40,245 bases of DNA, taken from IMG/VR virus record IMGVR_UViG_3300030372_001081, positions 1 through 40,245 of that record; one strand, given 5' to 3'. The stretch is from a virus. Its lineage: Duplodnaviria; Caudoviricetes. Position 1 is the first letter of the stretch. Each line of letters begins with the position of its first letter. The position numbers and the translations under genes were made by a program. Below, piece after piece: positions 1,505 to 40,245 of the stretch. The notes beneath the pieces were generated by a model. That model saw nothing but the letters and a program-made list of their open reading frames with translations. It had not been told where the DNA came from and did not search any database.

Positions 1505-1689
1505 AACTTAGGCAATCCTGTTGTGGTGGGCATTGAAGGCATTGATTGTTTAACCAATTCAGGGATTTGACCCTTTACCTTATCTAAGATTGTATTCACA
1601 ATCTTATCTTTATTCAAGTATGTAAAAGTTCCACCACCAACTGCTATTACAAGAAAAGCAGTATTTATGTAGGTAAGAATTTTTATCAT
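1501..1689 (-). CDS. Small single-TM membrane protein
   Basis: ATG at 1689 overlaps the upstream TGA; hydrophobic ILTYINTAFLVIAVGGGTF. Confidence 0.75.
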   Translation of the reverse strand: MIKILTYINTAFLVIAVGGGTFTYLNKDKIVNTILDKVKGQIPELVKQSMPSMPTTTGLPKL

Positions 1690-17160: not shown

Positions 17161-20027
17161 GGTAATGGACTCGTACTACTAATTACTATCTTAGTATCTA
17201 TATTGCTGGTCATCACAGGTACACGGAAAGATCCTGTAAGAACTGAAGGATCTCCGACAAGTGGAGGAGCTTCACCAACGATGACTCCGTTATAGGGATA
17301 AGTGTTTGTGTCTCTACTTGCAGGAGTAACCTTTAACTCAAAAGCTGACGACTCATCAAAGATTACAGTCCACGTTCTCATCTGTAGTTTCGGCCCTGCT
17401 GCCAATGCAACACCACCACCTTGCGGCTGTTCTTTTATGTATGGAGTGCTGAACTCGTAAGTCATAGTGTATCTTTCACCGATAAAGAAGCGTGGTGTCT
17501 TACCTCCTACCTGAGTCTTCAAATCTCCAAGGACTGTGATCGTATTAGATGTTTGAGATAGTGGTTCAATAACTTGTCCATGTCTTAGAAGGGTATTACC
17601 TTCTTCAAATCTTCCTACTACAATCATGTCTGCCCCAGTATTAATAGGGTAAGGAAGAGTGATGACAGTCTCTACACCTAAAGCACCAGCATTATTAAGA
17701 CTTGTCGATGTAACTTCTGACTCAGTAATCTTTCTATCTAGCAGTATTTCTATCTCTGTTCCTGGGTCTACTTGTTCAGGTCTTAATGATACTTTCTCTA
17801 GGTAAGTTCCTGATTGAGATGAAGATCCATCTTCGTCATATTCAGTAAGTACATACAAATCACTACCTTTAATTGCAGCACCTATTATCTTTTTACTACC
17901 ACTAACTTCCCAATAAGACCAAGCTGACTGAAGCTTTGTATCTTCTTCAAAGAAGAACTTATAAAGATAGATTCTCTTGGGCTGGTCAAGACTAAGCATT
18001 GCAACAGCATCTTCTGCCACAGCAGAGATAAGGTTACATAGATTTGTCGGTATATATCTAGGGATACTGGATGTTACATCTTCTGACAAAGGTACTGATC
18101 CACTTGAGTCAGGGAGGAAGAACTCTCTTAAGCCACTGAAGTTTCCTTTTGTTATAGGGAAGTATGTATTACGACCAACAGCTATCGGGTCAACAGATAT
18201 ATCCATATCAAAGGAGGTCATCTGTGTGATGGTGGCTGTCTTAGGCGTTAAGGCAGAACCTACATTTAATCCTGCATCTAATCTGAACTGAGCGTTTCTA
18301 CTAAACAAGAGAAGAGTGTTAGCAAAAGCGACAGTAGATAGAAGAATGTTGATAGAGCTACCACCGCAACTGAGATCTACTGGATCACTATCCACCATTG
18401 TCTGAACAGTTTCAGGCCAAAACCTTCCGTGGTCATCACTAGCAGAGAGGATGACATTCTCTTCAGATAGCATTATCAATCTATTCCTGAACAGGTTTAG
18501 ATTCTGTATTGTCCTGCCTACAAAGGTAGGCTCTAAGGCTGTCTTCTTGTCACCAGCTATACGACCTGACCACGTGGCTCCATAGACTGCATTACCACTG
18601 GTGGTTTGACTTTGCCCTGCTGTATAGGTGAATGTATTTGCAGTGACTGGTCGAATAGAAAAGACACCAGCAGTTCCTGCACCAGAAGAAGGTCTAACAA
18701 ATAAAAGATCTCCACTCTCTAATCCATGATCTGTTTTAGTAACAGTAACTGTTGTTCCTGATTGTGCATAGGTAGCACTATTCTCTCCCTTTATATATTT
18801 CTGGAAAGTAAAACTACCATCTGAATTTCTAACTAATACATGAGGCATTGTTGCCTCGTCAAATCTATATTGTATTCCTGGTGCTACTGTCTCTTTCCAT
18901 ACTCCATCACCATATATATCTGTGGCATCACTGGAGTAAGTAGGTGGAAAGTCTGCGTTGACTACAAACTTAACGTAGTAATCGTCATACCTAGTAGCTT
19001 GAGAGCCTTGTACTTTAACAATAAAACCGTGGTAAGCCTTGATAGGTAAGTCGTCTAAGTCATCGACAACACCTTTAATTGCTTTAGTTGCTTCTCCTGT
19101 CTTATCATCTTTGCTTGTTAATGTGTAATCACTTCCATCATTTTTCTTGATGTGAATTATGTAGTCGTCATTATCAATCGTGTATCCACCGATTGAATGT
19201 AGTTGTTGAGCTAACTTATCTGCGATTGTAACTGTTGATAATTTTACTTCAGGTACAACAGTGCAATTACCAGAGTTAGCACTTGAATCGTTTTGTGTTG
19301 CTGCTGTGTAGGTGAATGAATTTGTACTTGCACCAGCTACTTCATAAGTACCTGCTACTCCACCAGATGCAGTAGCAAAACTAATTTTAAACTTATCACC
19401 ATTAACCATTCCGTGTGCTGTTGCTGCAACTGTGACAGTGGCACTGTTAGCAGGTTGAGTGTAAGAAGATTCGATCTGTTCTCCACCAGCAGGGGGAGTT
19501 GTATATGATTTAGTTACGCCGCCTAATGTAACGCTGTACTCGGTGTCATAATTTGCAACCTTAATAAACACCATCCCTGTTACATCAGTGATTGTTGTTG
19601 GTGATAAGTCACTGGACATTGCAACAGTCTTTTCCTTGTTAACAATGAATGTGTAGTCAGCAATAGATGCAACCCTGAACATCTCTGAAGGATGACCAGT
19701 CACATCTAGGTAGCTAACTCCATCTGGTGTTGCAGGAGTAACAAGTGTTCCGTCTAAGTTTGCTACCTTGATTGCACCATCTTGAATAATGATGATGTAG
19801 TTAATATCGTTAGTCCTTGAAACCATGTGTACAAATGGTCGGACTGTTGACTTGTTCTCAATAAATAAACGAGCGACATTATTTAATGGCGGCCTCTTCT
19901 TCAATCCTTCAACTGGACTCGACATACAATTAACTACTTCCTCTGCCTGTGATGCCAGCCTCAAGGCAGGCGGCTGTTGGCTAACTCCATTAATGAGGTT
20001 AGGTATAGAAGAAGTAATTAAAGGCAT
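17100..20027 (-). CDS. Tail tubular protein B (gp12-like nozzle) with two inserted beta-rich domains
   Basis: IPNLINGVSQQP N-terminus, GLKKRPP, QSAWSYW, SAEWEG C-terminus. Confidence 0.95.
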   Translation of the reverse strand: MPLITSSIPNLINGVSQQPPALRLASQAEEVVNCMSSPVEGLKKRPPLNNVARLFIENKSTVRPFVHMVSRTNDINYIIIIQDGAIKVANLDGTLVTPATPDGVSYLDVTGHPSEMFRVASIADYTFIVNKEKTVAMSSDLSPTTITDVTGMVFIKVANYDTEYSVTLGGVTKSYTTPPAGGEQIESSYTQPANSATVTVAATAHGMVNGDKFKISFATASGGVAGTYEVAGASTNSFTYTAATQNDSSANSGNCTVVPEVKLSTVTIADKLAQQLHSIGGYTIDNDDYIIHIKKNDGSDYTLTSKDDKTGEATKAIKGVVDDLDDLPIKAYHGFIVKVQGSQATRYDDYYVKFVVNADFPPTYSSDATDIYGDGVWKETVAPGIQYRFDEATMPHVLVRNSDGSFTFQKYIKGENSATYAQSGTTVTVTKTDHGLESGDLLFVRPSSGAGTAGVFSIRPVTANTFTYTAGQSQTTSGNAVYGATWSGRIAGDKKTALEPTFVGRTIQNLNLFRNRLIMLSEENVILSASDDHGRFWPETVQTMVDSDPVDLSCGGSSINILLSTVAFANTLLLFSRNAQFRLDAGLNVGSALTPKTATITQMTSFDMDISVDPIAVGRNTYFPITKGNFSGLREFFLPDSSGSVPLSEDVTSSIPRYIPTNLCNLISAVAEDAVAMLSLDQPKRIYLYKFFFEEDTKLQSAWSYWEVSGSKKIIGAAIKGSDLYVLTEYDEDGSSSQSGTYLEKVSLRPEQVDPGTEIEILLDRKITESEVTSTSLNNAGALGVETVITLPYPINTGADMIVVGRFEEGNTLLRHGQVIEPLSQTSNTITVLGDLKTQVGGKTPRFFIGERYTMTYEFSTPYIKEQPQGGGVALAAGPKLQMRTWTVIFDESSAFELKVTPASRDTNTYPYNGVIVGEAPPLVGDPSVLTGSFRVPVMTSNIDTKIVISSTSPLPCRFQSAEWEGFYHTRAKRQ

Positions 20028-20029
20028 GA

Positions 20030-20638
20030 CTATCTAAGAACAGTACGACTTGGTTGGTAAGTCTGGAATACTCCTGTGTGATTAGGATTACCTCTAATCA
20101 TATTGTGATCTCCTGCATTAGTTTCTTCTTCTAAGAATTGTGCCCTTGCTTCTGCTTCTGCTGTGATATTGATCTGACTTAGATCTGCACTACCTAGTAT
20201 CTGTTCTTGTAGTGTGCGACCTGCCTTCGTCATTATGTATTGACGAGCGTGTTCAGGTAGGTCAGTCCACTCTAGGAAGTACGTTACATCTGCTGTTAAA
20301 TCTTCTTCAAAGATAGAAGTATTCTTTCTTCTGTCGTATAACTTCAATCCTCTTTGCACTACCTCATTGTCTGGGTATTCATAAGGATCAATCTTCACTC
20401 TGCTTATATCTGAACTTAAATTAATTTCATTAGTACCAGCAGTACGAGTCAGAGTTCTCTCGTAGTCAGTATTAAATGACCACCCTTCTGATTGGATTGT
20501 TCTGCTTACTTCTTTGAGAGTATCGTTTGCTTGCTTTGCAAGACCGAACTGACCAGCCAAGGAGTTAACAGGTGCTTCACCCATCATCCTTAATACTTTG
20601 TTGACTGCTTCTAGTTCTGAAGTGAGGTTAAGACCCAT
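20030..20638 (-). CDS. Tail tubular protein A (gp11-like adaptor)
   Basis: ELEAVNKVLRMMGEAPV, QSEGWSFN, LPEHARQYI. Confidence 0.95.
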   Translation of the reverse strand: MGLNLTSELEAVNKVLRMMGEAPVNSLAGQFGLAKQANDTLKEVSRTIQSEGWSFNTDYERTLTRTAGTNEINLSSDISRVKIDPYEYPDNEVVQRGLKLYDRRKNTSIFEEDLTADVTYFLEWTDLPEHARQYIMTKAGRTLQEQILGSADLSQINITAEAEARAQFLEEETNAGDHNMIRGNPNHTGVFQTYQPSRTVLR

Positions 20639-20664
20639 AAGAAAAGAGGGGGCATATAGCCCCC
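20639..20664 (-). terminator. Intrinsic terminator after the capsid gene (T-phi equivalent)
   Basis: Minus strand GGGGGC-TATAT-GCCCCC followed by TCTTTTCTT. Confidence 0.85.
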
Positions 20665-20671
20665 ACGGTAA

Positions 20672-21637
20672 TTAACTGGTTGCTGTGTATATCTCGATAG
20701 CACAGTCTGGACGTAAAACGCCAGTACCATGAGCCATAGATCCGACCATGAATGTACCTTGCCATAGTGCATGTACATCGGAACCAGTTTGTTCCATCTT
20801 CAGATCCATCAACTTAACAGTACCAACAGCTTGCTTGTTAAATACAAGTCCAACGCTAGCTGTATAGTCAGCGTGGTATGTGTTGTTCTCACCAGTTACA
20901 GCAGAACGGTTTGTAGTTGGCAAGTGGTTAGACTTAACGATGCTGATACCAGCAACCTTTAAGACTGTTCCATCTGCGTATGCTCCAGAACCACCCCAGT
21001 CTCTGTTGAGTACGTCTGTTGTTTGGGCGATTTTATAATATTCGGTTGGAGCAAGAGCTAAGTATCTCCCGTCCTCAGGAATATTATCTACATCCATCTG
21101 CTCTGCTGCTGACCACATAGCACTGACTAGCTGTGCCCCTGTGATAGCTGCTTTGTTAGTAGCAACAATCTTGATACGAGTACCACCAGGTAGATCAGTG
21201 TTGAAGTTAGTAGCTGTTCTTGCTGCTTGGCAGATAGTAGCTGCTACGTTCTGGTCATAGGTGTACGCTAATGCGTTACCCATCTCAGTTGTATACTGAG
21301 ACCTCACGTCATAATGGTTCTTAGCCTCATCAATGTCAGCAACGAATACGTTTGATACGAGCTTGTCATCGATGTTGATAACAGCTTCAGCGTGCTTAAT
21401 AGCATTACCTGTAAGCTGTGTACCAGGTGTATGGTACGCTGTACTGCTTAATCCAATGATAGGGAACTGAGCAGATTTACCAGATGATATCGTGCGTACA
21501 GTGTGCAACGCCTCGAACACGGTTGCCTTGCGGAAAGCACTAAGTACTTCTCCACTAAAGGTCTTAAGGAATAAAGCGTCATAGCTAGAGCCTGTATTGT
21601 TTACAAGACCTAGCCGTGAGCTAGTAAAATTAGCCAC
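20672..21637 (-). CDS. Major capsid protein (gp10-like), GTG start
   Basis: ALFLKTFSGEVLSAF, RTISSGKSAQFP, HYDVRSQY, GTGVLRPDCA. Confidence 0.97.
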   Translation of the reverse strand: MANFTSSRLGLVNNTGSSYDALFLKTFSGEVLSAFRKATVFEALHTVRTISSGKSAQFPIIGLSSTAYHTPGTQLTGNAIKHAEAVINIDDKLVSNVFVADIDEAKNHYDVRSQYTTEMGNALAYTYDQNVAATICQAARTATNFNTDLPGGTRIKIVATNKAAITGAQLVSAMWSAAEQMDVDNIPEDGRYLALAPTEYYKIAQTTDVLNRDWGGSGAYADGTVLKVAGISIVKSNHLPTTNRSAVTGENNTYHADYTASVGLVFNKQAVGTVKLMDLKMEQTGSDVHALWQGTFMVGSMAHGTGVLRPDCAIEIYTATS

Positions 21638-21744
21638 GGAAAAAAGAAAGAAAGGTTGCCCTTCACTATCTGTTCAACGCAGGGTATCCCTCGCAAGGGG
21701 CCGTTGTTTATACGAGAATGTTTAGGTTGTTTATATAATACCCC
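21638..21744 (-). promoter_or_regulatory. Capsid leader: TATTAT -10-like box, duplicated TATAAACAAC, CCCU-UGCG-AGGG hairpin, pyrimidine tract
   Basis: Seen in sequence at 21735-21740, 21703-21712 and 21726-21735, and 21688-21699. Confidence 0.55.
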
Positions 21745-22557: not shown

Positions 22558-22580
22558 TGGATGTGATGGGTGAAAGGTTG

Positions 22581-24834: not shown

Positions 24835-26289
24835 CTATGAGACTATTCCAAGTGTACGGATGTTGCCTGTTGGCTGGTACTTGTTAGTAGCAAAGCCTCT
24901 TCTTCCTTGTCCTGAAGCCATTGCTCTGTCTTCTAGTTTTAGTGCCTTGTCTGCTGCTGTTGTGCTTTTATTTCCTGTCTCTAAATTAATAATTGTATTA
25001 CCACCACCTGCTCCACCTGTCATCGCTGGTGCTGGTGGTACATAGTTAGAAGTCTTAGGCCCACCTGAAAGAGTAGTTTGCCAACCTTCACCCCAATCTA
25101 TATCTACGTCTTGCCCTGGTGTTAAACCAAGATTACTGTCAGTTGTTGAATGATCTATTGCTGGTGCTGTGCTGTAAAGTGTTCCATCTCCACCAGTTTG
25201 GAACCATTTATTTTTTGCCGTGTAATCTCCTTGAGCAATAGATAATTGACCAGCAGGAGTTTCAGCCCAAGTCGCAAGGTCTAATTTGTCAGCACCACCT
25301 GAAGTGAATTGTGTGGCGTTTACATTTTGAACACCAGTTGGAATATCAAAAGGATTAGCACCACCACCGCCAGGTAAGACAGGCCCATCCTTTTGGTAGT
25401 TAGCCATGTGAAAGTCATGGCCTGTTGTTGATGTTTGAGTACCAGTGTTGAACGGTACTGCTGTGATCCTGTAACCACCAGGGGCAGTACTATCTGGCAC
25501 GTACTGCCATGAGTAAGGTGTGCCTGTTATTTGATTTCCGTCATCATCAGTAGCGACTACCTGATTGCCATCGTCATCTAGCTTGATGTTCCCCTCGTCA
25601 TCTAACTCATACTGAGTAGCAGTTTTAGTGCCAGTGGGATTTAAAATATTGCCATCAGCGATTGCTTTCGCATGTAAGTTTAAATATTTTTTTTCTGTTA
25701 TTAAATCACCATCACCATCAACATCAACACCTGTCTTTATTTCTAATGGATTCCCATACCCTATTGTTCCAAACTTCTTGTAGTTCTGGTGACCTGTGTT
25801 GGCTGAGATGTCAGACGTTACCTGATCAGTTGCTGCTTTGTAAGCTTCTTCAAAGCTTTTACCTTGTGCTAAGTGGCTTTGTATATCTTGTGTCGTTTGA
25901 TAACCCCACCACTCACTACCTTCTTGCCCAACAGTATTACCTTGTAACATTCCATAAGAATAATTCTGGTGATCTAAATAGTTTTCAAGGTTAGATGTTT
26001 GTAACTTAGTAGACCAGTCTTCTGTTCTAACACCTAATGCAACATCATGGTCTTGGTGTTGGAACCAATCAGGTACACCTGCTACTCCTTTTGCTTCATC
26101 AGACCTAGCTACATTTCTTCTTACTGCTGTATCAGCTATCTTTGCTGCTTGTTCAGGTGTTTTGCCAGCAGCGATAGCATCAGCCTGTGCCTTGTCATAC
26201 TCAGCAGACCAATAAGCTAAACCCTCTGCACCAAAGTCTCTATCTAAAAGACTCTGACCTATGTTCTGTATTGCTGCTGACGTTGCCAT
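24835..26289 (-). CDS. 484-aa putative virion protein with DUF4214-like motifs and acidic DxxGN repeats
   Basis: LLDRDFGAEGLAYW, VGQEGSEWW, DVDGDGD, DDEGN/DDDGN x3. Confidence 0.7.
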   Translation of the reverse strand: MATSAAIQNIGQSLLDRDFGAEGLAYWSAEYDKAQADAIAAGKTPEQAAKIADTAVRRNVARSDEAKGVAGVPDWFQHQDHDVALGVRTEDWSTKLQTSNLENYLDHQNYSYGMLQGNTVGQEGSEWWGYQTTQDIQSHLAQGKSFEEAYKAATDQVTSDISANTGHQNYKKFGTIGYGNPLEIKTGVDVDGDGDLITEKKYLNLHAKAIADGNILNPTGTKTATQYELDDEGNIKLDDDGNQVVATDDDGNQITGTPYSWQYVPDSTAPGGYRITAVPFNTGTQTSTTGHDFHMANYQKDGPVLPGGGGANPFDIPTGVQNVNATQFTSGGADKLDLATWAETPAGQLSIAQGDYTAKNKWFQTGGDGTLYSTAPAIDHSTTDSNLGLTPGQDVDIDWGEGWQTTLSGGPKTSNYVPPAPAMTGGAGGGNTIINLETGNKSTTAADKALKLEDRAMASGQGRRGFATNKYQPTGNIRTLGIVS

Positions 26290-32901: not shown

Positions 32902-33154
32902 CTACCAAAGTTAATGAGCGACCACCAGCAGGAGAAGCAGCCTTGCTCCTAATAGCCTGCTGAAGAATACGTTTGCAAAGTTCAGGTCTTGTTGGTGGTG
33001 TTGGCTTGCCATGATGATGGTCATACCTTTCAGCACCAATCTCTTCCCTGATTTCTAATTGTCCTGCGATTGAATCTTGGCGTAGTTGCTCAAGTAATTC
33101 ATTCACATCCTCATCAAGTCTCATGCTGATTTGATTTGGGTCTCTTTTAGCCAT
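32894..33154 (-). CDS. RHH-like DNA-binding protein with a long inter-helix insertion
   Basis: QISMRLDEDVNELLEQL ... TRPELCKRILQQAI. Confidence 0.6.
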   Translation of the reverse strand: MAKRDPNQISMRLDEDVNELLEQLRQDSIAGQLEIREEIGAERYDHHHGKPTPPTRPELCKRILQQAIRSKAASPAGGRSLTLVDG

Positions 33155-33186
33155 GATTGGTTTCGGTTAAGGAACTGTTTTGTAGT

Positions 33187-33237
33187 CGAGGGTTGACACG
33201 CCTGCTCAAGTTTGAGACTCCGCCCTGTTATCCCTCG
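33187..33237 (-). promoter_or_regulatory. Long imperfect stem-loop upstream of the RHH-RHH-RNAP operon
   Basis: CGAGGG (33187-33192) pairs with CCCTCG (33232-33237); inner CTCAA/TTGAG. Confidence 0.45.
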
Positions 33238-33244
33238 TTAGTTT

Positions 33245-33514
33245 TTAAAGAGGTCTTCCTCTCTCATCACATAAGCCAAACTCTTCTTCATCTTCTTTCA
33301 TTCTTTTCTGTGAAAAGTATTCGTGATGATTCAGAAGATGTTGCTCATGTATTTGTTTAAAGAGGTCAAAGATTTCAACCTCTTCGCAAATCATTTCGGC
33401 ATTTGTTTCTCCCTTGTCATCATGGATTACTTTGCTCATATGCCAAAAGCCACGCTCGTCTTGTGAAAGCATGTAATTGGCAAGGATTCGAATCGTGATA
33501 GTTTCTTTTTTCAT
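33245..33514 (-). CDS. Early hypothetical protein
   Basis: 89-aa ORF in the early operon. Confidence 0.7.
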   Translation of the reverse strand: MKKETITIRILANYMLSQDERGFWHMSKVIHDDKGETNAEMICEEVEIFDLFKQIHEQHLLNHHEYFSQKRMKEDEEEFGLCDERGRPL

Positions 33515-33519
33515 GTTGG

Positions 33520-33771
33520 TTAGTAGCTGCTGTAAATAATTTCACGCTCAATCATCCACTGATACTTATCACTGGATGTCTTGCATGTTGGGCATGTAAT
33601 TACCTTGTCTCTCAGGTGGTAAACCTTATGAGTTGCCAAGCAATGACAGCATTTGATGTACTTACCATCAAAGCCAGTGCGTGAGTACTTGTGCATGGGT
33701 TGAAAATATTCAGTTACCACGCACTCACCATCTTTGCAGGTGATCTTTTTAGTTGATTCAGTTGGCCCCAC
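33520..33771 (-). CDS. Zinc-ribbon early protein
   Basis: CCHC...CPTC cysteine pairs. Confidence 0.72.
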   Translation of the reverse strand: MGPTESTKKITCKDGECVVTEYFQPMHKYSRTGFDGKYIKCCHCLATHKVYHLRDKVITCPTCKTSSDKYQWMIEREIIYSSY

Positions 33772-33878
33772 TCGTTATTCCTCTTGGGTTGTTGTACTGC
33801 TGGACTATTAGCCAGCAATAAAAAAAGAACAGCGTAGATACTTAGACCTAACGCTGTCCCGATAGCCTGCCTAATCAT
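33714..33878 (-). CDS. Small membrane protein
   Basis: ATG at 33878; hydrophobic AIGTALGLSIYAVLFLLLA. Confidence 0.55.
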   Translation of the reverse strand: MIRQAIGTALGLSIYAVLFLLLANSPAVQQPKRNNEWGQLNQLKRSPAKMVSAW

Positions 33879-34056
33879 CAAAGTTTTTGATGAACGCTCG
33901 ACCATGCACTGTCTTCTCAGGATGATTGATCTCTTCCTGATGTAGTTCTTCTTTCATTACTTCCTTCATATTGGAAGCAACGTCTTCGACAGAATTAATA
34001 TCTTCCAGCTTGACTTCCTTAGAGGAATCACCGAAAGCGAAAATAATATCTCCCAT
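33871..34056 (-). CDS. Small acidic early protein
   Basis: ATG at 34056 in a TAATG overlap with the upstream small ORF. Confidence 0.65.
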   Translation of the reverse strand: MGDIIFAFGDSSKEVKLEDINSVEDVASNMKEVMKEELHQEEINHPEKTVHGRAFIKNFDD

Positions 34057-34178
34057 TAGAAAAGAACTCCGAGTGTGAATACGACAGCAAGCACAATCCA
34101 TAGACTGTCAAGCTGTTCTTTAACTGGTCTTAACTGCTCTAGTTCAGCAGTTAATGATGCGTTTGTTGGCTTTGCCAC
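34056..34178 (-). CDS. 40-aa C-terminally anchored membrane protein (not in the ORF track)
   Basis: GTG 34178: MAKPTNASLTAELEQLRPVKEQLDSLWIVLAVVFTLGVLF; follows the conserved leader cassette. Confidence 0.7.
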   Translation of the reverse strand: MAKPTNASLTAELEQLRPVKEQLDSLWIVLAVVFTLGVLF

Positions 34179-34192
34179 GATAAATAAATTAA

Positions 34193-34255
34193 ATGGTGGG
34201 ATTTGTGAGGGTGTGAACCCCTCAGTCTGCCCAGTAGTTAGGGCAGAGAGAGAGA
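34193..34255 (-). repeat. Early-gene leader cassette, copy A (CU tract, two hairpins, CCCACCA)
   Basis: TGAGGG/CCCTCA at 34206-34224 and TCTGCCC/GGGCAGA at 34226-34247; near-duplicate of 34551-34610. Confidence 0.85.
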
Positions 34256-34256
34256 A

Positions 34257-34541
34257 TCAAATTCCTAAGTGAAGATAGTCATAGTCACCAGGTTGTTCCG
34301 AACAATCACAAGCCCATGTCCATAAAACTCTGAGTTTGTTTTCTTCATGGTCTTCTAATTGTTCATCTGTCCATGCTCCATATTCTTGTAGATGTTCTTT
34401 GAATAAATCTTTAGGCCCATCAAAATTAAGATGTTTAACCCAGAACTCTACATTTTTAGTAGCGTCACCACTGCCAGAACAATCTGCAATGCACTCGCCA
34501 GGTAACTGTCTAGTGCTATCTCTACCATCAAACCAATTCAT
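34257..34541 (-). CDS. Early hypothetical protein
   Basis: 94-aa ORF flanked by leader cassettes. Confidence 0.8.
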   Translation of the reverse strand: MNWFDGRDSTRQLPGECIADCSGSGDATKNVEFWVKHLNFDGPKDLFKEHLQEYGAWTDEQLEDHEENKLRVLWTWACDCSEQPGDYDYLHLGI

Positions 34542-34550
34542 AGAAATAAA

Positions 34551-34610
34551 GCGGTGGGATTTTGTTGAGGGTGAGTCCCTCAGTCTGTCCCGTAGGACAG
34601 AGAGAGAGAG
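34551..34610 (-). repeat. Early-gene leader cassette, copy B
   Basis: TGAGGG/CCCTCA at 34566-34582; UCUGUCC-UACG-GGACAGA hairpin at 34584-34601. Confidence 0.85.
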
Positions 34611-34847
34611 TCAACCGATGGCAACTATATCTTTGATACATGATTCCATTTCAGCCTTGTTTATCTTTGGATCGTCCCATCTGTAACCCTCGCCTGTTGT
34701 TGTTCTTTTAGTGCCGTTAATCTGGTACTCAACAAAAGCTTTAAAGTTACCGATGTTCTTAGCGTCCTGATAAAACTGTTGGTCGTTGCCAATAGTTAAA
34801 GCTGCTGACCATGTTTCACGATTAGACCATCCATTACATTCACTCAT
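34611..34847 (-). CDS. Early protein with NGWxNxETW motif
   Basis: NGWSNRETWSAALTIGND resembles a common phage early-protein motif. Confidence 0.8.
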   Translation of the reverse strand: MSECNGWSNRETWSAALTIGNDQQFYQDAKNIGNFKAFVEYQINGTKRTTTGEGYRWDDPKINKAEMESCIKDIVAIG

Positions 34848-34862
34848 TTTTTAGACCTCTTT

Positions 34863-34916
34863 GTGGTGGGCTTCCCTCAGTTGAGGGAATGACTAGACCA
34901 GGGTTTGCACCTGGTC
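34863..34916 (-). promoter_or_regulatory. Early-gene leader cassette, divergent copy C (two hairpins and CCCACCAC)
   Basis: TTCCCTC/GAGGGAA at 34872-34889; GACCAGG/CCTGGTC at 34896-34916. Confidence 0.7.
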
Positions 34917-34931
34917 AACCGCTTGAACGGA

Positions 34932-35366
34932 TTAATCAAAGAATCTGGAAGTCTTAGGAATATCAACCACTGTTGGAGCCTTTGGAATGTTCCAATCGTA
35001 GTCAAACTCTGCCTTGTAACACTTCCATTCTTTTAGATCAGTGTTCCAAAGATAAGAATATTCAATCTGAATTGGATCGTAGAAAATGTAATCATTTAGA
35101 TCTTCATGTTCTTGAGCCATTGTCTTCTCACCTCTTTGGTTGAAAGTTCTAATGATTGGTTCTTCAACTTCTTTCATGTTCCAATCTGTCTTTGAGTGGA
35201 TACATGAAATGTCGCCTAACTCCATTAGTTCCCTCACCTTAGAAGTGTCTGAATAGTTCCTCTTTAGAAAGACTCCTAACCATTCTGGGTATCCATCCGA
35301 GTGATGATATACAGACTCAATAGATTCATCTTGGTTAAGGATTCCGATCCGTGAACGAGTAGACAT
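34932..35366 (-). CDS. First early gene; protein with MSTRSRIG...HxDGYP motif
   Basis: 144-aa ORF; SVYHHSDGYPEWLG motif. Confidence 0.85.
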   Translation of the reverse strand: MSTRSRIGILNQDESIESVYHHSDGYPEWLGVFLKRNYSDTSKVRELMELGDISCIHSKTDWNMKEVEEPIIRTFNQRGEKTMAQEHEDLNDYIFYDPIQIEYSYLWNTDLKEWKCYKAEFDYDWNIPKAPTVVDIPKTSRFFD

Positions 35367-35393
35367 AAACCTAATGTGGTGGGTTCATTAATC

Positions 35394-35549: not shown

Positions 35550-35673
35550 GCCTAGTCGTACCAATGGATTAGACCCCCTGCCCCCTTATTTGGACAGAAT
35601 TTGGACACCAATGGGGGGTGATCGACTCACTCCCTACTACACGTTAACCCCTCACATTTTCTGGGTAAAAAAG

Positions 35674-35786
35674 TGATCTGTGGGGATCTAACAGATATCT
35701 TATAGGGGGGGGGATCTAGTGGGATCTTATAGGGGGACTTATAGGAATCTAATAGGGGGGATCTGAGTGGATCTTATAGGGGTGAT
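35674..35786. repeat. G-rich short-repeat array, probably adjacent to the genome terminus
   Basis: GGATCT x5, CTTATAGG x4, G-runs up to 9 nt. Confidence 0.8.
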
Positions 35787-35819
35787 AAGGAAGATATTCT
35801 ATTCATATATGGACAGTTA

Positions 35820-35848
35820 GTGATAGCAAGGGATTTGAGGGGTAGAAT
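35820..35848 (+). promoter_or_regulatory. Putative sigma70-type promoter for the plus-strand RNA / terminase operon
   Basis: GTGATA-17 nt-TAGAAT; predicted start about 35855, at the base of a hairpin. Confidence 0.5.
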
Positions 35849-35854
35849 TTAGGG

Positions 35855-35915
35855 GGTTAGCTTAGTCTGCCAGTGAGCTAACAAGGGGGCTTTCCTGTGG
35901 TGGGTGAAGCCCCCG
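35855..35915 (+). ncRNA. Candidate two-hairpin small RNA or structured 5' leader of terS
   Basis: Stems GTTAGCT/AGCTAAC (35856-35882) and GGGGGCTT/AAGCCCCC (35885-35914); apical regions complementary to early leaders. Confidence 0.4.
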
Positions 35916-35954
35916 CTAATATTTGTGTATGATTAGGGAAGTTATTGAAAAGTT

Positions 35955-36191
35955 ATGGCTAGGAAGAGTACGACAGAGGTATTAGGGGATTTACATGCGG
36001 GATTAGCGGAGTGGTTTATGGATAAGTTGGTATCTGGTGAGATGACTGTTGCGGATGTGAATGTCGCTAGACAGTTTTTGAAGGATAATCAGATCAGTGC
36101 ACAGCCAGTAGAGGGTACAGCGTTTGGGGAGTTAGCGAAACAGTTACCTGATATAGAGAATGTCGTAGCATTTAAGAAGAAGAGGGCGTGA
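35955..36191 (+). CDS. terS: Terminase small subunit (gp18-like)
   Basis: LGDLH...ADVNVARQFLKDNQI; directly upstream of terL. Confidence 0.9.
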   Translation: MARKSTTEVLGDLHAGLAEWFMDKLVSGEMTVADVNVARQFLKDNQISAQPVEGTAFGELAKQLPDIENVVAFKKKRA

Positions 36192-36195
36192 GTAA

Positions 36196-37926
36196 GTGAA
36201 AGAAAAGTGGGTGCAGCTACCTGAACAGTTCAGGGATGACTTTAGATATTTTTTAGTTGTCGTATGGAAGCACCTTCAACTTCCTAATCCGACTCCAGTT
36301 CAGTTAGATATAGCTGAATATATGCAGGATGGGCCTAAGAGAAGAATTATTGAGGCTTTTCGTGGAGTAGGAAAGAGTTGGATGGCAGCAGCTTATGTGT
36401 TGTGGCTGTTAAGAAATGATCCACAGAAGAAGATCATGGTTGTATCTGCAAGCAAGATGCGAGCAGATGACTTTGCACAGTTTTGTTTAAGGTTAATTAG
36501 AGAGATGGATATATTGAAGTGCTTAGAACCAGATAGGGATGAGCAAAGAAGTGCAAGTAATAGATTTGATGTAAGACCAGCGACACCAGATCAGTCTCCA
36601 TCAGTTAAGTCTGTTGGTATATTTGGACAGCTTACTGGTAGCCGTGCTGACCTGATATTAGCCGATGACTGTGAGGTTCCTAATACAGCTTGGACTGTAG
36701 GAATGAGAGAGAAGTTGATTGTATCTGTCGGAGAATTTAATGCAATCCTGAAACCAGGGGGAGAAATTATGTTCCTGGGTACGCCTCAGACGGAAGAAAG
36801 TATTTATAACAAGCTACAAACAAAAGGATATGAATGTCGTATCTGGCCTGCAAGGTATCCAAAGAAACCACAGAAGTACGGTGCATCTCTAGCACCCATT
36901 ATAAGTGAGAATTGTGTCGATCTTGTTAATAAACCAACTGACCCTGATCGCTTTAATGAACTAGATCTAATTGAAAGAGAAGCTAGTTATGGTAAGTCGC
37001 AATTCACACTTCAGTTTCAACTAGATACGACACTCAGTGATCTAAATCGTTTTCCTCTTAGATTATCTGACTTAGTAGTTTTAGAAGTTGACCAAGACGC
37101 ACCTGAAAAAGTGGTGTGGTCTTCTGGTGCTGAGTATCGGATTACTGACCTGCCTGCTGTTGGGTTTAGTGGAGATTATTATCACAGGCCAGCGTTTATA
37201 CATGGGCAGTGGATTGAGTTCCAAGGATGTGTAATGTTTATAGATCCTTCAGGTAAAGGTTTAGATGAGACTGCTTATTCTATTGTCGCTCATCTCAATG
37301 GAAATTTATTTGTACTGGAGGTGGGATCTTTTAGAGAAGGATATACAGAGCCTGTCTTAAGAGGAATTGCAGAAGCAGCTAAACGTAGAAAAGTAAAACT
37401 GATTCTCTTGGAAGATCAATTTGGTCAAGGCATGATGGAAAATCTATTGCAGCCTTACCTCAGAGAGGTTTACCCCTGCACGATTGAAGCGACTAGGAGC
37501 AACGTCCAAAAGGAAAGAAGAATTATTAATGCTCTTGAACCAGTGATGAATCAACATCGGTTGATCTTTAATCGCTCGGTAATTGAAGATGATTCCAAAG
37601 CTAGAGATGATGATTCCGTAGAGACAGCCTTGGCATACCAGTTGTTTCATCAATTAACTCATCTCACTGTCGATAAACAATCTTTACAGCATGATGACAG
37701 ATTAGACTCGTTAGCTGGTGCAGTTCAGTATTGGAACGAGTCTCTTGCTATAGATGAAGATAGAGCTATTAAAGAACGTGAACAAGAACTCTGGGAGTTG
37801 GAATTGGCAGCGTATAAAGGTGATATTGAGGGCCTTCTCGATGCACAAATACTTGGTGTCCCAATCGAAAAAGTCCAAAGACAAAACGCAAAAAGTGGAT
37901 GGATCAAGACCCATGGGAACCACTGA
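36196..37926 (+). CDS. terL: Terminase large subunit (gp19-like)
   Basis: AFRGVGKSW, QLTGSRADLILADD, LGTPQ, IDPSGKGLDET, HDDRLDSLA. Confidence 0.97.
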   Translation: MKEKWVQLPEQFRDDFRYFLVVVWKHLQLPNPTPVQLDIAEYMQDGPKRRIIEAFRGVGKSWMAAAYVLWLLRNDPQKKIMVVSASKMRADDFAQFCLRLIREMDILKCLEPDRDEQRSASNRFDVRPATPDQSPSVKSVGIFGQLTGSRADLILADDCEVPNTAWTVGMREKLIVSVGEFNAILKPGGEIMFLGTPQTEESIYNKLQTKGYECRIWPARYPKKPQKYGASLAPIISENCVDLVNKPTDPDRFNELDLIEREASYGKSQFTLQFQLDTTLSDLNRFPLRLSDLVVLEVDQDAPEKVVWSSGAEYRITDLPAVGFSGDYYHRPAFIHGQWIEFQGCVMFIDPSGKGLDETAYSIVAHLNGNLFVLEVGSFREGYTEPVLRGIAEAAKRRKVKLILLEDQFGQGMMENLLQPYLREVYPCTIEATRSNVQKERRIINALEPVMNQHRLIFNRSVIEDDSKARDDDSVETALAYQLFHQLTHLTVDKQSLQHDDRLDSLAGAVQYWNESLAIDEDRAIKEREQELWELELAAYKGDIEGLLDAQILGVPIEKVQRQNAKSGWIKTHGNH

Positions 37927-38125
37927 ATACAGACCTAGAGGATGGGTGGTGCGTATCCCTTCTGGTTTTGTTGGCTATAGTTCTGTTTCTGATTGTGGAT
38001 TCCAAACGGTTGTCGTAGCTGAAACTCCTGACCATGCTTTAGATGTCGCTTCTAATTCTCACGTGTGGGAGCATTTAGAGTTTCCTGTTAGCGATTTCCA
38101 AGTGTTTCCGCAAGATCCTCTTTAA
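37913..38125 (+). CDS. Hypothetical protein (70 aa)
   Basis: ATG 37913 overlaps the terL end; shorter version of track ORF 37754-38125. Confidence 0.55.
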   Translation: MGTTEYRPRGWVVRIPSGFVGYSSVSDCGFQTVVVAETPDHALDVASNSHVWEHLEFPVSDFQVFPQDPL

Positions 38126-38301
38126 ACTCTCCACTTACGATTACGATCTGGTGGATGATGACTAGCAACTGTTTTCTCTAGTTCATTTATACGGTTAAAT
38201 AGCTCTCTAGTGTCTCGATCACGGCGGTTGCTTACGTTGCTAAGAGACATGATGACAACGCTGGCTGTTGCACCAATGATTGCTGCTGTAATCTCTGCCA
38301 C
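38122..38301 (-). CDS. 59-aa protein with N-terminal TM and coiled coil (not in the ORF track)
   Basis: GTG 38301: MAEITAAIIGATASVVIMSLSNVSNRRDRDTRELFNRINELEKTVASHHPPDRNRKWRV; TACACT box upstream. Confidence 0.7.
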   Translation of the reverse strand: MAEITAAIIGATASVVIMSLSNVSNRRDRDTRELFNRINELEKTVASHHPPDRNRKWRV

Positions 38302-38353
38302 TGTTCAAAATGAAGAATTTTGTCTAGTGTAGGGCTGCCTACCACTGATTTCT

Positions 38354-38800
38354 ATGGAAGAAAAGAAAACACCTGAGCAAAAGAAAAAGAATCCTTTGCA
38401 GAAATTAAAGGAAAATTTAGATGATAAAGAAGAACAACTGCAAGTTCTTTCTACTTTTGTTCGATTAGGTGTCGTTGTTTGGTCAGGATTTATCTTGACT
38501 CTTAACTATGTAACTATTCCTGGGATTGGTGAGCAAGAACGTATAGATCCAACCTTTATAGCTTCAGTTTTCACTGGAGCACTTGCTAGTTTTGGTTTGG
38601 AAACTGCTAAGAAAAGAGGAGATGGAACGTATAAAGCAGAGGAAGAAAAGAAAAAAGCAGAAACAGCAGGTGGATTTGCTAATGGTGTTCCTTATACCAT
38701 TGTAAGAATTGAGACTCCAGTAAAATTAGTACCAGATAAGCCAAAAGTTGATGAACTTACTGGTAAAAAAATTGATCCTGAAACAGGCAAATTGACATGA
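38354..38800 (+). CDS. Two-TM membrane protein, holin candidate
   Basis: VRLGVVVWSGFILTLNYV and FIASVFTGALASFG flanked by charged termini. Confidence 0.8.
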   Translation: MEEKKTPEQKKKNPLQKLKENLDDKEEQLQVLSTFVRLGVVVWSGFILTLNYVTIPGIGEQERIDPTFIASVFTGALASFGLETAKKRGDGTYKAEEEKKKAETAGGFANGVPYTIVRIETPVKLVPDKPKVDELTGKKIDPETGKLT

Positions 38801-39294
38801 AAAAGTTATTAATCCTGTTTCTATTGGCTTCTCCCTGCCAAGCAGAGATCATATCCAAGCTTTCTAGTTCTACTTCTCTAACAGTAGGAGCTAGTAGCAC
38901 CCAAGCAACCAGGGTTCCATCAACTTACGCAGTGTCGGGATCTAATATAAAGGTCAGCACTGGTGAACACATTGGGAAACTGACAGCAGGGTCAGCTACA
39001 GCAGCCGCTACACTTGATGTTGGAACGTACGAAATGAATACAGTGGGTTCAGCGTTTTCGCTGACGGAAAGTTGGCAGCAGGGAGACGCTATACCAGCAA
39101 TAGGCAGTGGTGTTGACGTAAGTGCTGGTGTAGTTGCTGACATGCCTGCTTTTGGCAGTACGACCACTATCTCAGGTGGTGTTGCTGGTAACTTGGCAGG
39201 CACTGTAGTCAGTTCTGGTGTTGTTACGGTAGTAGCAGGTGGTGCAAACACTACGGCTGTAGGACAAGTAACCAACGAATTGACTGTAAGGTGA
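38797..39294 (+). CDS. Exported Ser/Thr/Gly-rich beta protein
   Basis: Signal peptide MKKLLILFLLASPCQA. Confidence 0.85.
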   Translation: MKKLLILFLLASPCQAEIISKLSSSTSLTVGASSTQATRVPSTYAVSGSNIKVSTGEHIGKLTAGSATAAATLDVGTYEMNTVGSAFSLTESWQQGDAIPAIGSGVDVSAGVVADMPAFGSTTTISGGVAGNLAGTVVSSGVVTVVAGGANTTAVGQVTNELTVR

Positions 39295-39304
39295 GAATAT
39301 TCCT

Positions 39305-39733
39305 GTGCGTACCTTTCTATATCTCGTACTGCTGTTTAGCCCTAGCGTTCAGGCTGTACCAGTGGTTCCTCAATTTACACAGGGTACAGTTACTTCGCAT
39401 ACGGAAACGAGTACAAAAATTACAGAGACAATCAACTCGATTGACATAAATACAGGCTGGCAATACACGGTTACTGGGACAAATATGAAACATTCTGGTT
39501 CATCTGTGTCTCCCACCACTGTTACAGCCCCTTCTCAGACCACTGATGGCATTACTTACACATGGGTTGGCTTAGATCACTCCAACAAACCGAATTGGCA
39601 GATTCATACAGACGGATCAGCCTTTCAGTTTACCGAAACATACGCTGCTCCTGGGGTAAGCCAGCAAACAATCATCCAAAGAACAACCGATCAAACAAGT
39701 ATCACCGATACAACAAGTATCTTTCAACAATAG
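39305..39733 (+). CDS. Exported Thr-rich beta protein (VPVVPxFTQG type)
   Basis: Signal peptide MRTFLYLVLLFSPSVQA followed by VPVVPQFTQG. Confidence 0.85.
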   Translation: MRTFLYLVLLFSPSVQAVPVVPQFTQGTVTSHTETSTKITETINSIDINTGWQYTVTGTNMKHSGSSVSPTTVTAPSQTTDGITYTWVGLDHSNKPNWQIHTDGSAFQFTETYAAPGVSQQTIIQRTTDQTSITDTTSIFQQ

Positions 39734-40245
39734 CTTATGGATTACTCACGTTTAATTACGGTTTGCCTGCTTACTCTGGTGATGTCGGTGGCGTTAGTGC
39801 TACCGCCGCTCCTAATGCTTCCTCTAGTGGAAGCGTTATCAACCAAGGAGTACAAGTCTTACAAGGACCATTCCATACCAACACATACGGTAACGGAATA
39901 CAGTGCCAAGGAACTACATTAAGCATTACACCCTTTCTTACAGGTGCATTATCGCTTAAAAGGCCCTACGAAAGCTATTATCAAGACCCTGTTTACGATA
40001 CAAGTGATGCTAATGATGATGGAATCATTGATAATCCAGGGAATGTTTTATATTTCAAGGATGTAAGAACAGGACAGAAGGACTCTCACAGCATCACAGG
40101 AGGGATCTCAGCGACCCTTTCAGTTCCACTGGATAAAAGATTCACGACTCGTTGTTTATCTGCCGCTACAACCCAAGAGAAAATACAACAGCAGATCTTG
40201 GCTAACAAGAGGCTTGATTTTGAAATTGCGAGGCTTCGTGAGTGC
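39562..40245 (+). CDS. 5' part of the junction-spanning exported protein (continues to 285); start uncertain
   Basis: Frame open from 39547 through the junction; signal-like KYLSTIAYGLLTFNYGLPAYS, then GDVGGVSATA...GIQCQG. Confidence 0.8.
   Translation, partial: MGWLRSLQQTELADSYRRISLSVYRNIRCSWGKPANNHPKNNRSNKYHRYNKYLSTIAYGLLTFNYGLPAYSGDVGGVSATAAPNASSSGSVINQGVQVLQGPFHTNTYGNGIQCQGTTLSITPFLTGALSLKRPYESYYQDPVYDTSDANDDGIIDNPGNVLYFKDVRTGQKDSHSITGGISATLSVPLDKRFTTRCLSAATTQEKIQQQILANKRLDFEIARLREC
40147..40245. repeat. Contig-end direct repeat, copy 2
   Basis: Identical to 1-99. Confidence 0.97.

Follow-up and report, generated by a model that had tools for sequence, protein, structure and literature searches.

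Boxes repeated before early genes of a T7-like cyanophage as likely landing sites of a phage small RNA, with upstream hairpins that resemble cutting sites of host nucleases

Each part of the arrangement described here has a precedent. The early transcript of phage T7 contains RNase III sites, as Dunn and Studier reportedly found in 1973; tRNA punctuation is known from mitochondria; the C4 RNA of phage P1 and the CI RNA of phage P4 are RNAs that give immunity or dormancy; and T4-like phages carry PeSL cassettes. Here, we analyzed a stretch of viral DNA of 40,245 nucleotides (nt) (IMG/VR record IMGVR_UViG_3300030372_001081; this whole stretch is termed the window herein), whose record is that of a complete virus and carries direct terminal repeats, and in which four consecutive early genes are each preceded by a short box. 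We favor the reading that a small RNA of the phage likely lands on this box, where it would keep ribosomes from loading, and that the hairpins upstream of the boxes are predicted cutting sites for host nucleases.

The early genes lie on the minus strand behind a sigma70-like promoter (35421 to 35394, TTGAAA-16-TATAGT, 10 of 12 matches), which we term the P cassette and which relatives keep ahead of different genes. The original prediction had located the four boxes, and its coordinates, strand, and spacing all hold. Box 1 (CCCACCAC, 35376 to 35383) lies just past the predicted transcription start and 9 nt before the ATG of a gene of 144 amino acids (aa) (34932 to 35366, phrog_1987), and box 2 (CCCACCAC, 34863 to 34870) lies 15 nt before the ATG of a 78-aa gene (34611 to 34847, matching DUF7249 and phrog_871). 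Box 3 (CCCACCGC, 34551 to 34558) is found 9 nt before the start of a 94-aa gene with no family match (34257 to 34541), and box 4 (CCCACCAT, 34193 to 34200) 14 nt before a 40-aa gene with a GTG start (34056 to 34178), the conserved right-hand anchor of the variable block. The core CCCACC occurs 20 times in the window against 6.67 expected, a number reached by none of 100 shuffles. The boxes had been proposed to stand ahead of each early gene; this is true of the first four, but the leaders of the next six early open reading frames (ORFs) and of the RNA polymerase gene match at most 6 of the 8 positions, and no box is found in the RNA polymerase, portal, or capsid leaders of the window.

The box CCCACCAC is the reverse complement of a hairpin loop sequence, GUGGUGGG, on the opposite strand upstream of terS. 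The candidate small RNA at this place comprises hairpin 1 (35856 to 35882, plus strand), whose stems vary among relatives, and hairpin 2 (35885 to 35914, plus strand), whose loop UUCCUGUGGUGGGUGA contains the seed at 35897 to 35904; boxes 3 and 4 would each pair with the seed via one G.U. The box had been taken for a part of a cis-acting RNA cassette, but is better explained by this complementary partner acting in trans. Of 73 viral loci (TerS 54 to 100% identical), 72 have hairpin 2 ahead of terS; in an overlapping set of 72 metagenome loci, 68 have it directly there, and one more has it behind an inserted gene. Twenty-five of the 43 distinct hairpins are in a common register; in these, 99.5% of the cells pair and all eight pairs covary, more than in any of 500 shuffles or in the slid controls. 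The seed is nearly invariant (59 of 72 relatives). Within stems defined from Watson-Crick pairs only, 14 G.U against 2 A.C wobbles were counted on the plus strand (expected ratio, 0.88), with a p value of 0.0009 that is optimistic because the sequences are related. A sigma70-like promoter precedes the candidate RNA (35820 to 35848, plus strand, GTGATA-17-TAGAAT, 9 of 12 matches); it is not above chance on its own. Of 58 relatives, 56 have a TAnnnT hexamer at a distance of 40 to 100 nt ahead of the loop on the seed strand, and 35 have one on the other strand. A possible extended −10 element for terS (TGTGTATGAT, 35924 to 35933, plus strand), seen in close relatives, would keep small RNA and terS message apart.

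In relatives, the boxes are tied to one strand and to leaders. At 67 loci with the canonical seed, 86 distinct exact boxes lie on the early strand versus 1 on the other, with 2 exact boxes in about 78 kb of RNA polymerase and middle genes, and 59 metagenome loci gave 65 versus 1. The spacing between box and start codon ranges from 1 to 18 nt in relatives' leaders (1 nt from the ATG in 4 of 40), and positions upstream of −2 are not conserved. Predicted duplexes of the seed with the four window leaders have energies of −14.3 to −19.6 kcal/mol, with −14 reached by 10% of 1,006 background windows. Internal variants of the box at leaders are wobble compatible in 12 cases versus 2 transversions, a preference that transition bias explains in part.

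Seed and boxes also change together. The loci with a GUGGCGGG seed (L261 and L264) have CCCGCCAC leaders and no CCCACCAC, and the orthologous first gene has a CCCACCAC leader in L266, a genome with the GUGGUGGG seed. Loci with a GUAGUGGG seed have CTCACTAC or ACCACTAC leaders, of the type (A/C/U)CCACTAC. The bases before the box follow the bases after GGG in the loop, with 48 flank matches versus 33.2 after shuffling at −2 and 42 versus 29.0 at −3 (n = 106). Finally, three loci lack the hairpin (L666, L667, and L670, of which L666 and L670 are nearly identical), and their 6.3 kb contain no CCACCAC, CCACTAC, or CCGCCAC. In the early region of L670, ACCAGGA occurs instead of the box, six times on the early strand and at least three times near start codons.

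A different pair of box and loop is found in the distant lineage of the isolate P-SCSP2, whose terminase is 51% identical to that of the window. GAACCAC precedes four early genes of P-SCSP2, including its integrase gene, and its RNA polymerase leader has no box. Following the exonuclease gene, a unit on the opposite strand consists of an extended −10 element, a hairpin with the loop GAGUGGUUA, and a U-tailed 14-bp stem with the loop AGUGGUUC; it is a unit of promoter, hairpin, and terminator with GUGGUU loops. All 32 relatives that extend this far have the motif of the unit, all 17 distinct copies have TGTTAnnnT and a U-tailed stem, and 7 of 21 pairs covary in 12 aligned copies. Across 46 P-SCSP2-like loci, GAACCAC was counted 83 times against 2, 77 times at leaders, and CCCACCAC not once; 56 of 98 AACCAC leaders of this type place the box 1 nt from the ATG. 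The core ACCAC is common to the boxes of both lineages. A promoter and terminator on the seed strand are thus clear in the P-SCSP2 lineage (17 of 17), while in the window lineage a −10 element is usual and the U-tail weak. A simple look at leaders revealed no evident box/seed pair in P-SSP7, Syn5, P-RSP2, or HTVC011P; P-SSP10 has two GAACCAC sites and no matching antisense hairpin, other seeds not having been searched systematically. In L546 and L560, an additional structured element that includes a long U-tailed stem is inserted between exonuclease and small RNA.

Loop and boxes change together and vanish together, which points to a trans-acting antisense RNA directed against early ribosome-binding sites. 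As in trans-encoded antisense small RNAs, the seed is complementary to its targets at the ribosome-binding site, and seed and targets change together, with one counterexample. Judging from the sequences, we are rather confident that seed and boxes would pair as RNAs. Since the seed would cover the ribosome-binding site, repression would be the natural outcome, and we consider it probable.

Several observations weigh against this reading. The counterexample, L679, has a GUAGUGGG seed and retains one CCCACCAC leader, which would not match it fully. About three independent events account for the seed variants, and because of shared phylogeny the counts are not independent of one another. A strict leader filter was passed by 40 of the 86 exact boxes and failed by the other 46, which were left unclassified. 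The U-tail is weak in the window lineage (at least five T in 11 of 43 hairpins on the plus strand and 5 of 43 on the minus strand) and the loop lies as little as 30 to 40 nt before terS, so that the RNA may be a terS leader and not a free small RNA. By itself, the 71-nt RNA of the window is hardly more stable when folded than its shuffled versions (z, −1.8), and some of the seed bases are predicted to pair inside the loop. Nine small-share RNA runs all consisted of contigs; four of them show that relatives are present, but the longest contig may be DNA, and assembled contigs carry no strand or end information. Lastly, boxes also precede the scaffold gene and one late gene while the RNA polymerase leader has none, which does not make for a clean early shut-off. 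The scaffold site, a box-like CCCATCAC (22563 to 22570, minus strand) 5 nt before the gene, would form a predicted 13-bp duplex with the seed loop and is present in three of four readable relatives. The other is a perfect box (1523 to 1530, minus strand) 18 nt before a 173-aa late-region gene (phrog_605), which is present in one of five relatives, where it retains its box. In addition, CCTACCAC lies 8 to 9 nt before late-region genes (window, 38338 to 38345, plus strand; P-SCSP1u, about 32185), possibly marking further targets.

The same observations bear on other explanations. The RNA of a resident or integrated phage might silence the early genes of later kin or keep the phage dormant, as C4 and CI do. 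Integrase-like genes are found in 7 of 34 loci that extend to RNA polymerase, the integrase leader of P-SCSP2 is boxed, the seed variants resemble immunity groups, and PMC9860041 describes P-SCSP2 lysis timing as erratic, all of which would fit. We nevertheless regard this explanation as unlikely, as the window has no integrase match, the RNA polymerase leader is unboxed in both the window and P-SCSP2, and the seed is nearly invariant across most relatives.

It is quite unlikely, too, that the box is the binding site of a phage or host protein and the hairpin a sense-strand decoy or a shared site. A protein of drifting specificity would also shift all of its sites together, both lineages have the core ACCAC, and the hairpin folds on the minus strand as well. 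The wobble polarity, however, favors the antisense strand, as do the promoter and U-tailed terminator of the P-SCSP2 lineage, and the excess of wobble-compatible box variants, part of it transition bias, points the same way. Moreover, P-SCSP1 and P-SCSP2 infect the same host, and two MED4 phages with different boxes, each matching its own hairpin, fit poorly with a DNA or protein site defined by the host.

We consider it very improbable that the box supplies positions −12 to −5, the specificity element, in a promoter for the T7-type RNA polymerase, with the hairpin copy a packaging promoter. T7-family promoters end in CAC followed by a TATAGG-like sequence; the box ends in CAC, sometimes with TATAGG behind it (L201), and such an element would coevolve genome-wide. 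But the box is absent before the capsid and portal genes of both the window and P-SCSP1u, and copies ahead of the capsid and other late operons, which a promoter would need, are missing; box matches across the whole genome cluster in the early region; and positions upstream of −2 are not conserved. Spacings of 0 to 3 nt argue in the same direction, because with a box 1 nt from the ATG the +1 position would fall inside the start codon. That the repeats are recombination relics or Chi-like DNA signals without a role as RNA (GTGGTGG resembles Chi, and homology to close relatives does break at the cassettes) is hardly credible given that stems and the contact of D-loop and T-loop covary while the sequence is free, and that boxes keep to start codons and are not the same in two phages that share a host.

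With the boxes read as targets of a small RNA, the structures upstream of them can be considered separately. Three of the four genes had been described as following double hairpins; two of these are the R cassettes dealt with below, but the structure before box 2 belongs to a different, tRNA-like class. This T cassette (34890 to 34937, minus strand) resembles a tRNA without anticodon, with a 5-bp acceptor, a D-like hairpin, a 7-bp T stem, the T-loop UGCAAAC (34903 to 34909), and a discriminator A, directly after which a hairpin begins (34872 to 34889, minus strand) that is predicted to be the 5′-terminal stem after a cut. In 29 distinct copies (31 pattern matches, with 2 identical cores merged), the T stem is paired at 7 of 7 positions in 26 and the acceptor at 5 of 5 in 28, a count that is slightly inflated because the 5′ strand of the acceptor was located by search; several pair types occur per position, and the discriminator is A in 24 of 29. 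The D-loop ends in GG whenever the T-loop begins with UUC (17 of 17) and in AG whenever it is UGCAAAC (12 of 12). A plain alignment of 28 copies pairs in 92% of its cells, with 12 of 21 pairs changing on both sides; the T stem reaches 99%, with 5 of 7 pairs covarying.

A covariance model built from this alignment of the T cassette matched once in the window, twice in P-SSP10, and also in P-SSP7, Syn5, S-SBP1, and S-TIP37, with E values that are rough; distant blastn comparison of the cassettes to named phages gave marginal matches only, so that the model was needed. Copies in other phages stand ahead of early genes, and some of these phages have one ahead of the capsid gene, as in the clade A/B phages P-SSP7 (20627 to 20700, L590), S-SBP1 (19295 to 19404, L593), and S-TIP37 (20512 to 20623, L592); the capsid gene of the window has no such mimic. 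In alignments of clade A/B phages, which have the hairpins without the box, the rule linking D-loop and T-loop appears the same by eye, as sequence covariation. A pattern scan for the cassette returned 35 loci, of which 12 proved to be common tRNA-like 3′ ends on unrelated contigs that have no box.

Other identities of the T cassette were rejected: it is not a tRNA gene (ARAGORN found none, and the 5 + 7 geometry is not the 7-bp acceptor, 5-bp T stem, and anticodon arm of a tRNA), nor the remnant of an attP site, given that geometry and its freely varying stems. CCCACCA is likewise not a tRNA 3′ end, since a hairpin parts the box from the acceptor and the box also occurs without an acceptor. 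RNase P and RNase Z gauge their substrates by a stack of constant length, 12 bp, together with an elbow contact. The cassette has the 12-bp coaxial stack of acceptor and T stem and the 7-nt T-loop of their tRNA-like substrates, and sequence covariation indicates the elbow contact between D-loop and T-loop, so we believe with some confidence that it undergoes processing of the tRNA type.

The two R cassettes, A (34566 to 34613, minus strand) and B (34206 to 34259, minus strand), form a 67-nt repeat of 72% identity, with the U-A/C-G compensatory swap and the C(UACG)G loop as originally described. They had been read as a CU tract followed by two hairpins; the tract is not free, but pairs with GAGGG in a long interrupted hairpin (34613 to 34572 in A and 34259 to 34214 in B), and the two-hairpin form exists as the alternative, closed by UGAGGG/CCCUCA (34582 to 34566 in A and 34224 to 34206 in B). 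The long hairpin is the lowest-energy form, with 86% (A) and 67% (B) of the ensemble, and folding z-scores are −5.4 and −6.2, respectively. All cells pair in 14 of 21 distinct aligned copies, and four upper-stem pairs covary, so the earlier claim of selection on RNA structure is borne out for both T and R stems. The lower R stem, as a point against, is invariant within the window lineage; the P-SCSP2 lineage has the same plan in other letters (lower stem UCUUUC/GAAAGG, alternative UGAAAGG/CCUUUCA; in L558, the alternative is UGAAGG/CCUUCA). Together with a further copy in P-SSP10, this indicates that both helices are maintained, which fits cutting followed by refolding. A detector of the R architecture that uses no sequence gave three distinct cases on the early strand and none in reverse, and missed known copies.

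The R duplex has about 19 positions with one mismatch and a 2-by-2 loop, compared with about two helical turns in T7-type RNase III sites, and lies, as such sites do, between genes of the early transcript of the host polymerase. By analogy to T7 and to rules that come from Escherichia coli (PMC1540722 and PMC6212723), we lean slightly toward the R cassette being an RNase III cutting site; where internal loops are present, the enzyme can be limited to a single cut, after which a 3′ hairpin remains as protection (PMC1540722). A fourth conserved long hairpin, CGAGGG/CCCUCG (33187 to 33237, minus strand), is followed by CCCACC in some relatives and not here. It stands before an 86-aa early gene and is opened by a conserved CGAGGGATA, which recurs in the capsid leader (21670 to 21700, minus strand) and may be the real promoter of the phage polymerase or a fourth processing element.

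Genes turn over at the cassettes. In relatives, the early block consists of the promoter, a box, and a gene, followed by units of T cassette, box, and gene and of R cassette, box, and gene, with differing genes in the slots: the window reads P[144 aa]T[78]R[94]R[40], L122 reads P[62]T[201]T[47], and L151 reads P[71]T[103]R[47]. At 21 loci compared, homology to the window breaks at 35375 to 35382, 34855 to 34873, and 34544, that is, at boxes or start codons, and in one contig the stretch from 34562 to 35382 is replaced. Behind the 47 cassettes of the main cluster, the encoded proteins begin with 28 different hexapeptides, although some of these belong to alleles of the same gene. The original prediction had proposed recombination joints for the swapping of early genes; different genes do lie behind conserved cassettes, and recombination within the cassettes, which we infer, would be the simplest cause. 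The named homologues of the first early gene (34932 to 35366) are mainly from T4-like cyanomyoviruses (99 records), suggesting exchange between phage families.

From the observed complementarity, co-change, co-loss, polarity, structures, and gene turnover, we infer the following course of transcription, cutting, repression, and timing. Transcription by the host RNA polymerase would start at the sigma70 promoter and yield a single early transcript. In this transcript, RNase Z would cut the tRNA mimic after the discriminator, with RNase P probably cutting before the acceptor stem, and RNase III would cut the long hairpin in its 2-by-2 loop, whereupon the R 3′ arm would refold with its second partner and close the new 5′ end. 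After either cut, the message would begin with a helix that includes its first base, and box and start codon would follow. The plus-strand RNA, made from its own host-type promoter on DNA that probably enters later (it would be the last DNA to enter in the window lineage; in P-SCSP2, the RNA lies after the middle genes), would then pair via its GUGGU loop with every box. Any gene behind a cassette would gain a 5′ end and control, so that the cassettes would serve as exchange points as well.

The window encodes, according to a protein family scan, a T7-type RNA polymerase, a single-stranded DNA-binding protein, an endonuclease, a primase/helicase, an exonuclease, and portal, capsid, and terminase proteins; no DNA polymerase match was obtained among the 40 window ORFs scanned. 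Compared with Prochlorococcus phage P-SCSP1, an MPP-C cyanopodovirus (PMC9860041), identity is 53% for the RNA polymerase and 80% for the terminase; the window is, by protein sequence, a clade-C (MPP-C) T7-like cyanophage. No integrated copy was found in the picocyanobacterial genomes searched, so the host is assigned from kinship and would be that of the P-SCSP1 kin. The terS and terL genes start at 35955 and run opposite to the early genes; the terminase operon is inverted in the window lineage and not in P-SCSP2 (36196 to 39922 versus 33033 to 34754), and the small RNA is located differently in the two. Short direct repeats (D3/D5) and a conserved motif, AAAA.TGAGGGG, at 35642 to 35782 suggest that the physical genome ends may lie near there, between the small-RNA hairpin and the early promoter; relatives share the motif, and P-SCSP2 has it between terL and its first gene. 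This placement presumes a T7 layout. Early genes and small RNA would then be at opposite ends of the packaged DNA. Between exonuclease and portal, the window has a 484-aa gene with a weak immunoglobulin-like match (24835 to 26289, minus strand), and P-SCSP1u has short genes only.

Around the small RNA, a conserved CTTC(A/T)TAT(A/G)TGGACAG lies upstream of its promoter (window, about 35800 to 35820, plus strand, and most terL-anchored loci) and is kept even in loci without the seed hairpin, possibly as a packaging or pause signal. The loop of hairpin 1 in L236, L244, L249, L252, and others often contains (A)UCCCC(AU), a possible second seed, with CCAGUG in its place in the window sub-lineage. 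A pairing of that loop with cassette B, noticed by eye, failed in other relatives. A 16-letter loop pattern was not used, as its hits in viral contigs were mostly an unrelated repeated element of isolate prophages; this element, which contains TTTTCCTGTGGTGGGTTCTGTTGC, is common in isolate-genome prophages (L294 to L372), in a context unrelated to box or seed.

No known family accounts for these RNAs, as the original prediction had anticipated: Rfam gave no match at gathering score for the window or for the elements in P-SCSP1u, P-SCSP2, and P-SSP10 other than one unrelated riboswitch, and only chance-level matches by E value. A single undescribed cis-acting family, as then proposed, is too narrow, because there are three cassette types, and box and hairpins are separable. 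The C4 and CI antisense families do not fit, as the two- or three-hairpin fold has no cloverleaf and no Rfam match. Literature searches (tRNA-like processing, antisense RNA, P-SSP7 RNase III, and processing sites), from which subscription papers on P-SSP7 transcription were outside, yielded no description, nor did term searches in the available parts of PMC9860041, PMC7885011, PMC4646655, PMC5082946, and PMC12197685. Six motif strings had no match in seven supplements of a viral structured-RNA catalogue (PMC10690425), whose two largest files, which may hold alignments, were outside the search. The combination of parts and the repeated, coevolving target box appear undescribed.

If the reading is true, a T7-like phage has a self-targeting, multitarget small RNA with natural compensatory changes, a phage message has tRNA-like punctuation, and it is explained how unrelated swapped-in early genes still get expressed and switched off. 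MPP-C phages made up 43.5% of cyanopodovirus reads in surface waters (PMC9860041), and the elements are present in the cultured phages P-SCSP1u, P-SCSP2, P-SSP7, and Syn5, for which laboratory hosts exist, which makes each step directly testable. More tentatively, and quite possibly wrongly, the early program might be run by RNA alone, with tRNA mimics and refolding hairpins punctuating the transcript and the one small RNA, turned on once later DNA has entered the cell, silencing whatever genes are plugged in. RNA control would then replace T7's protein shut-off of the host polymerase, perhaps unaffordable in a photosynthetic host, and phages would fall into RNA-based exclusion groups according to their seed variant. 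No match to an annotated shut-off function was obtained for the ten early ORFs, a weak negative.

Like the T7 early RNase III sites, the R cassettes are long interrupted hairpins between genes of an early transcript of the host polymerase, but they fall just under two turns at about 19 positions, their 3′ arm has a second, covarying partner, and a tRNA-like cassette stands alongside. The T cassette shares its 12-bp stack of acceptor and T stem, T-loop, D-loop purine contact, and unpaired discriminator without CCA with tRNA-like processing signals such as mitochondrial tRNA punctuation, mascRNA, and the tRNA-like domain of tmRNA; unlike these, it is built 5 + 7 and not 7 + 5, has no anticodon arm, is repeated between phage protein genes, and matches neither ARAGORN nor Rfam models. 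PeSL cassettes of T4-like phages are, as set out in PMC2839356, repeated intergenic cassettes in variable regions at which nonessential genes are exchanged. Genes are exchanged at the cassettes here too, but PeSLs are units of promoter and terminator, whereas here one promoter is followed by cassettes that resemble processing sites and carry a box with a partner in trans, with no promoter or terminator called at T or R cassettes. The SviR RNA of the Vibrio PLE satellite acts in trans on several targets and lowers translation, as described in bioRxiv 10.1101/2022.04.08.487710; there a satellite acts against its helper phage, whereas here the targets would be genes of the phage itself, reached via a repeated, coevolving box. 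The C4 RNA of P1/P7, the CI RNA of P4, and Sar of P22 (the last in a table of PMC12197685) are, like the candidate RNA, phage RNAs that pair in trans via loops with short boxes; in contrast to these, the one here has no cloverleaf, belongs to T7-like phages mostly without integrase, and faces, with a single seed, many hypervariable early genes at their start codons.

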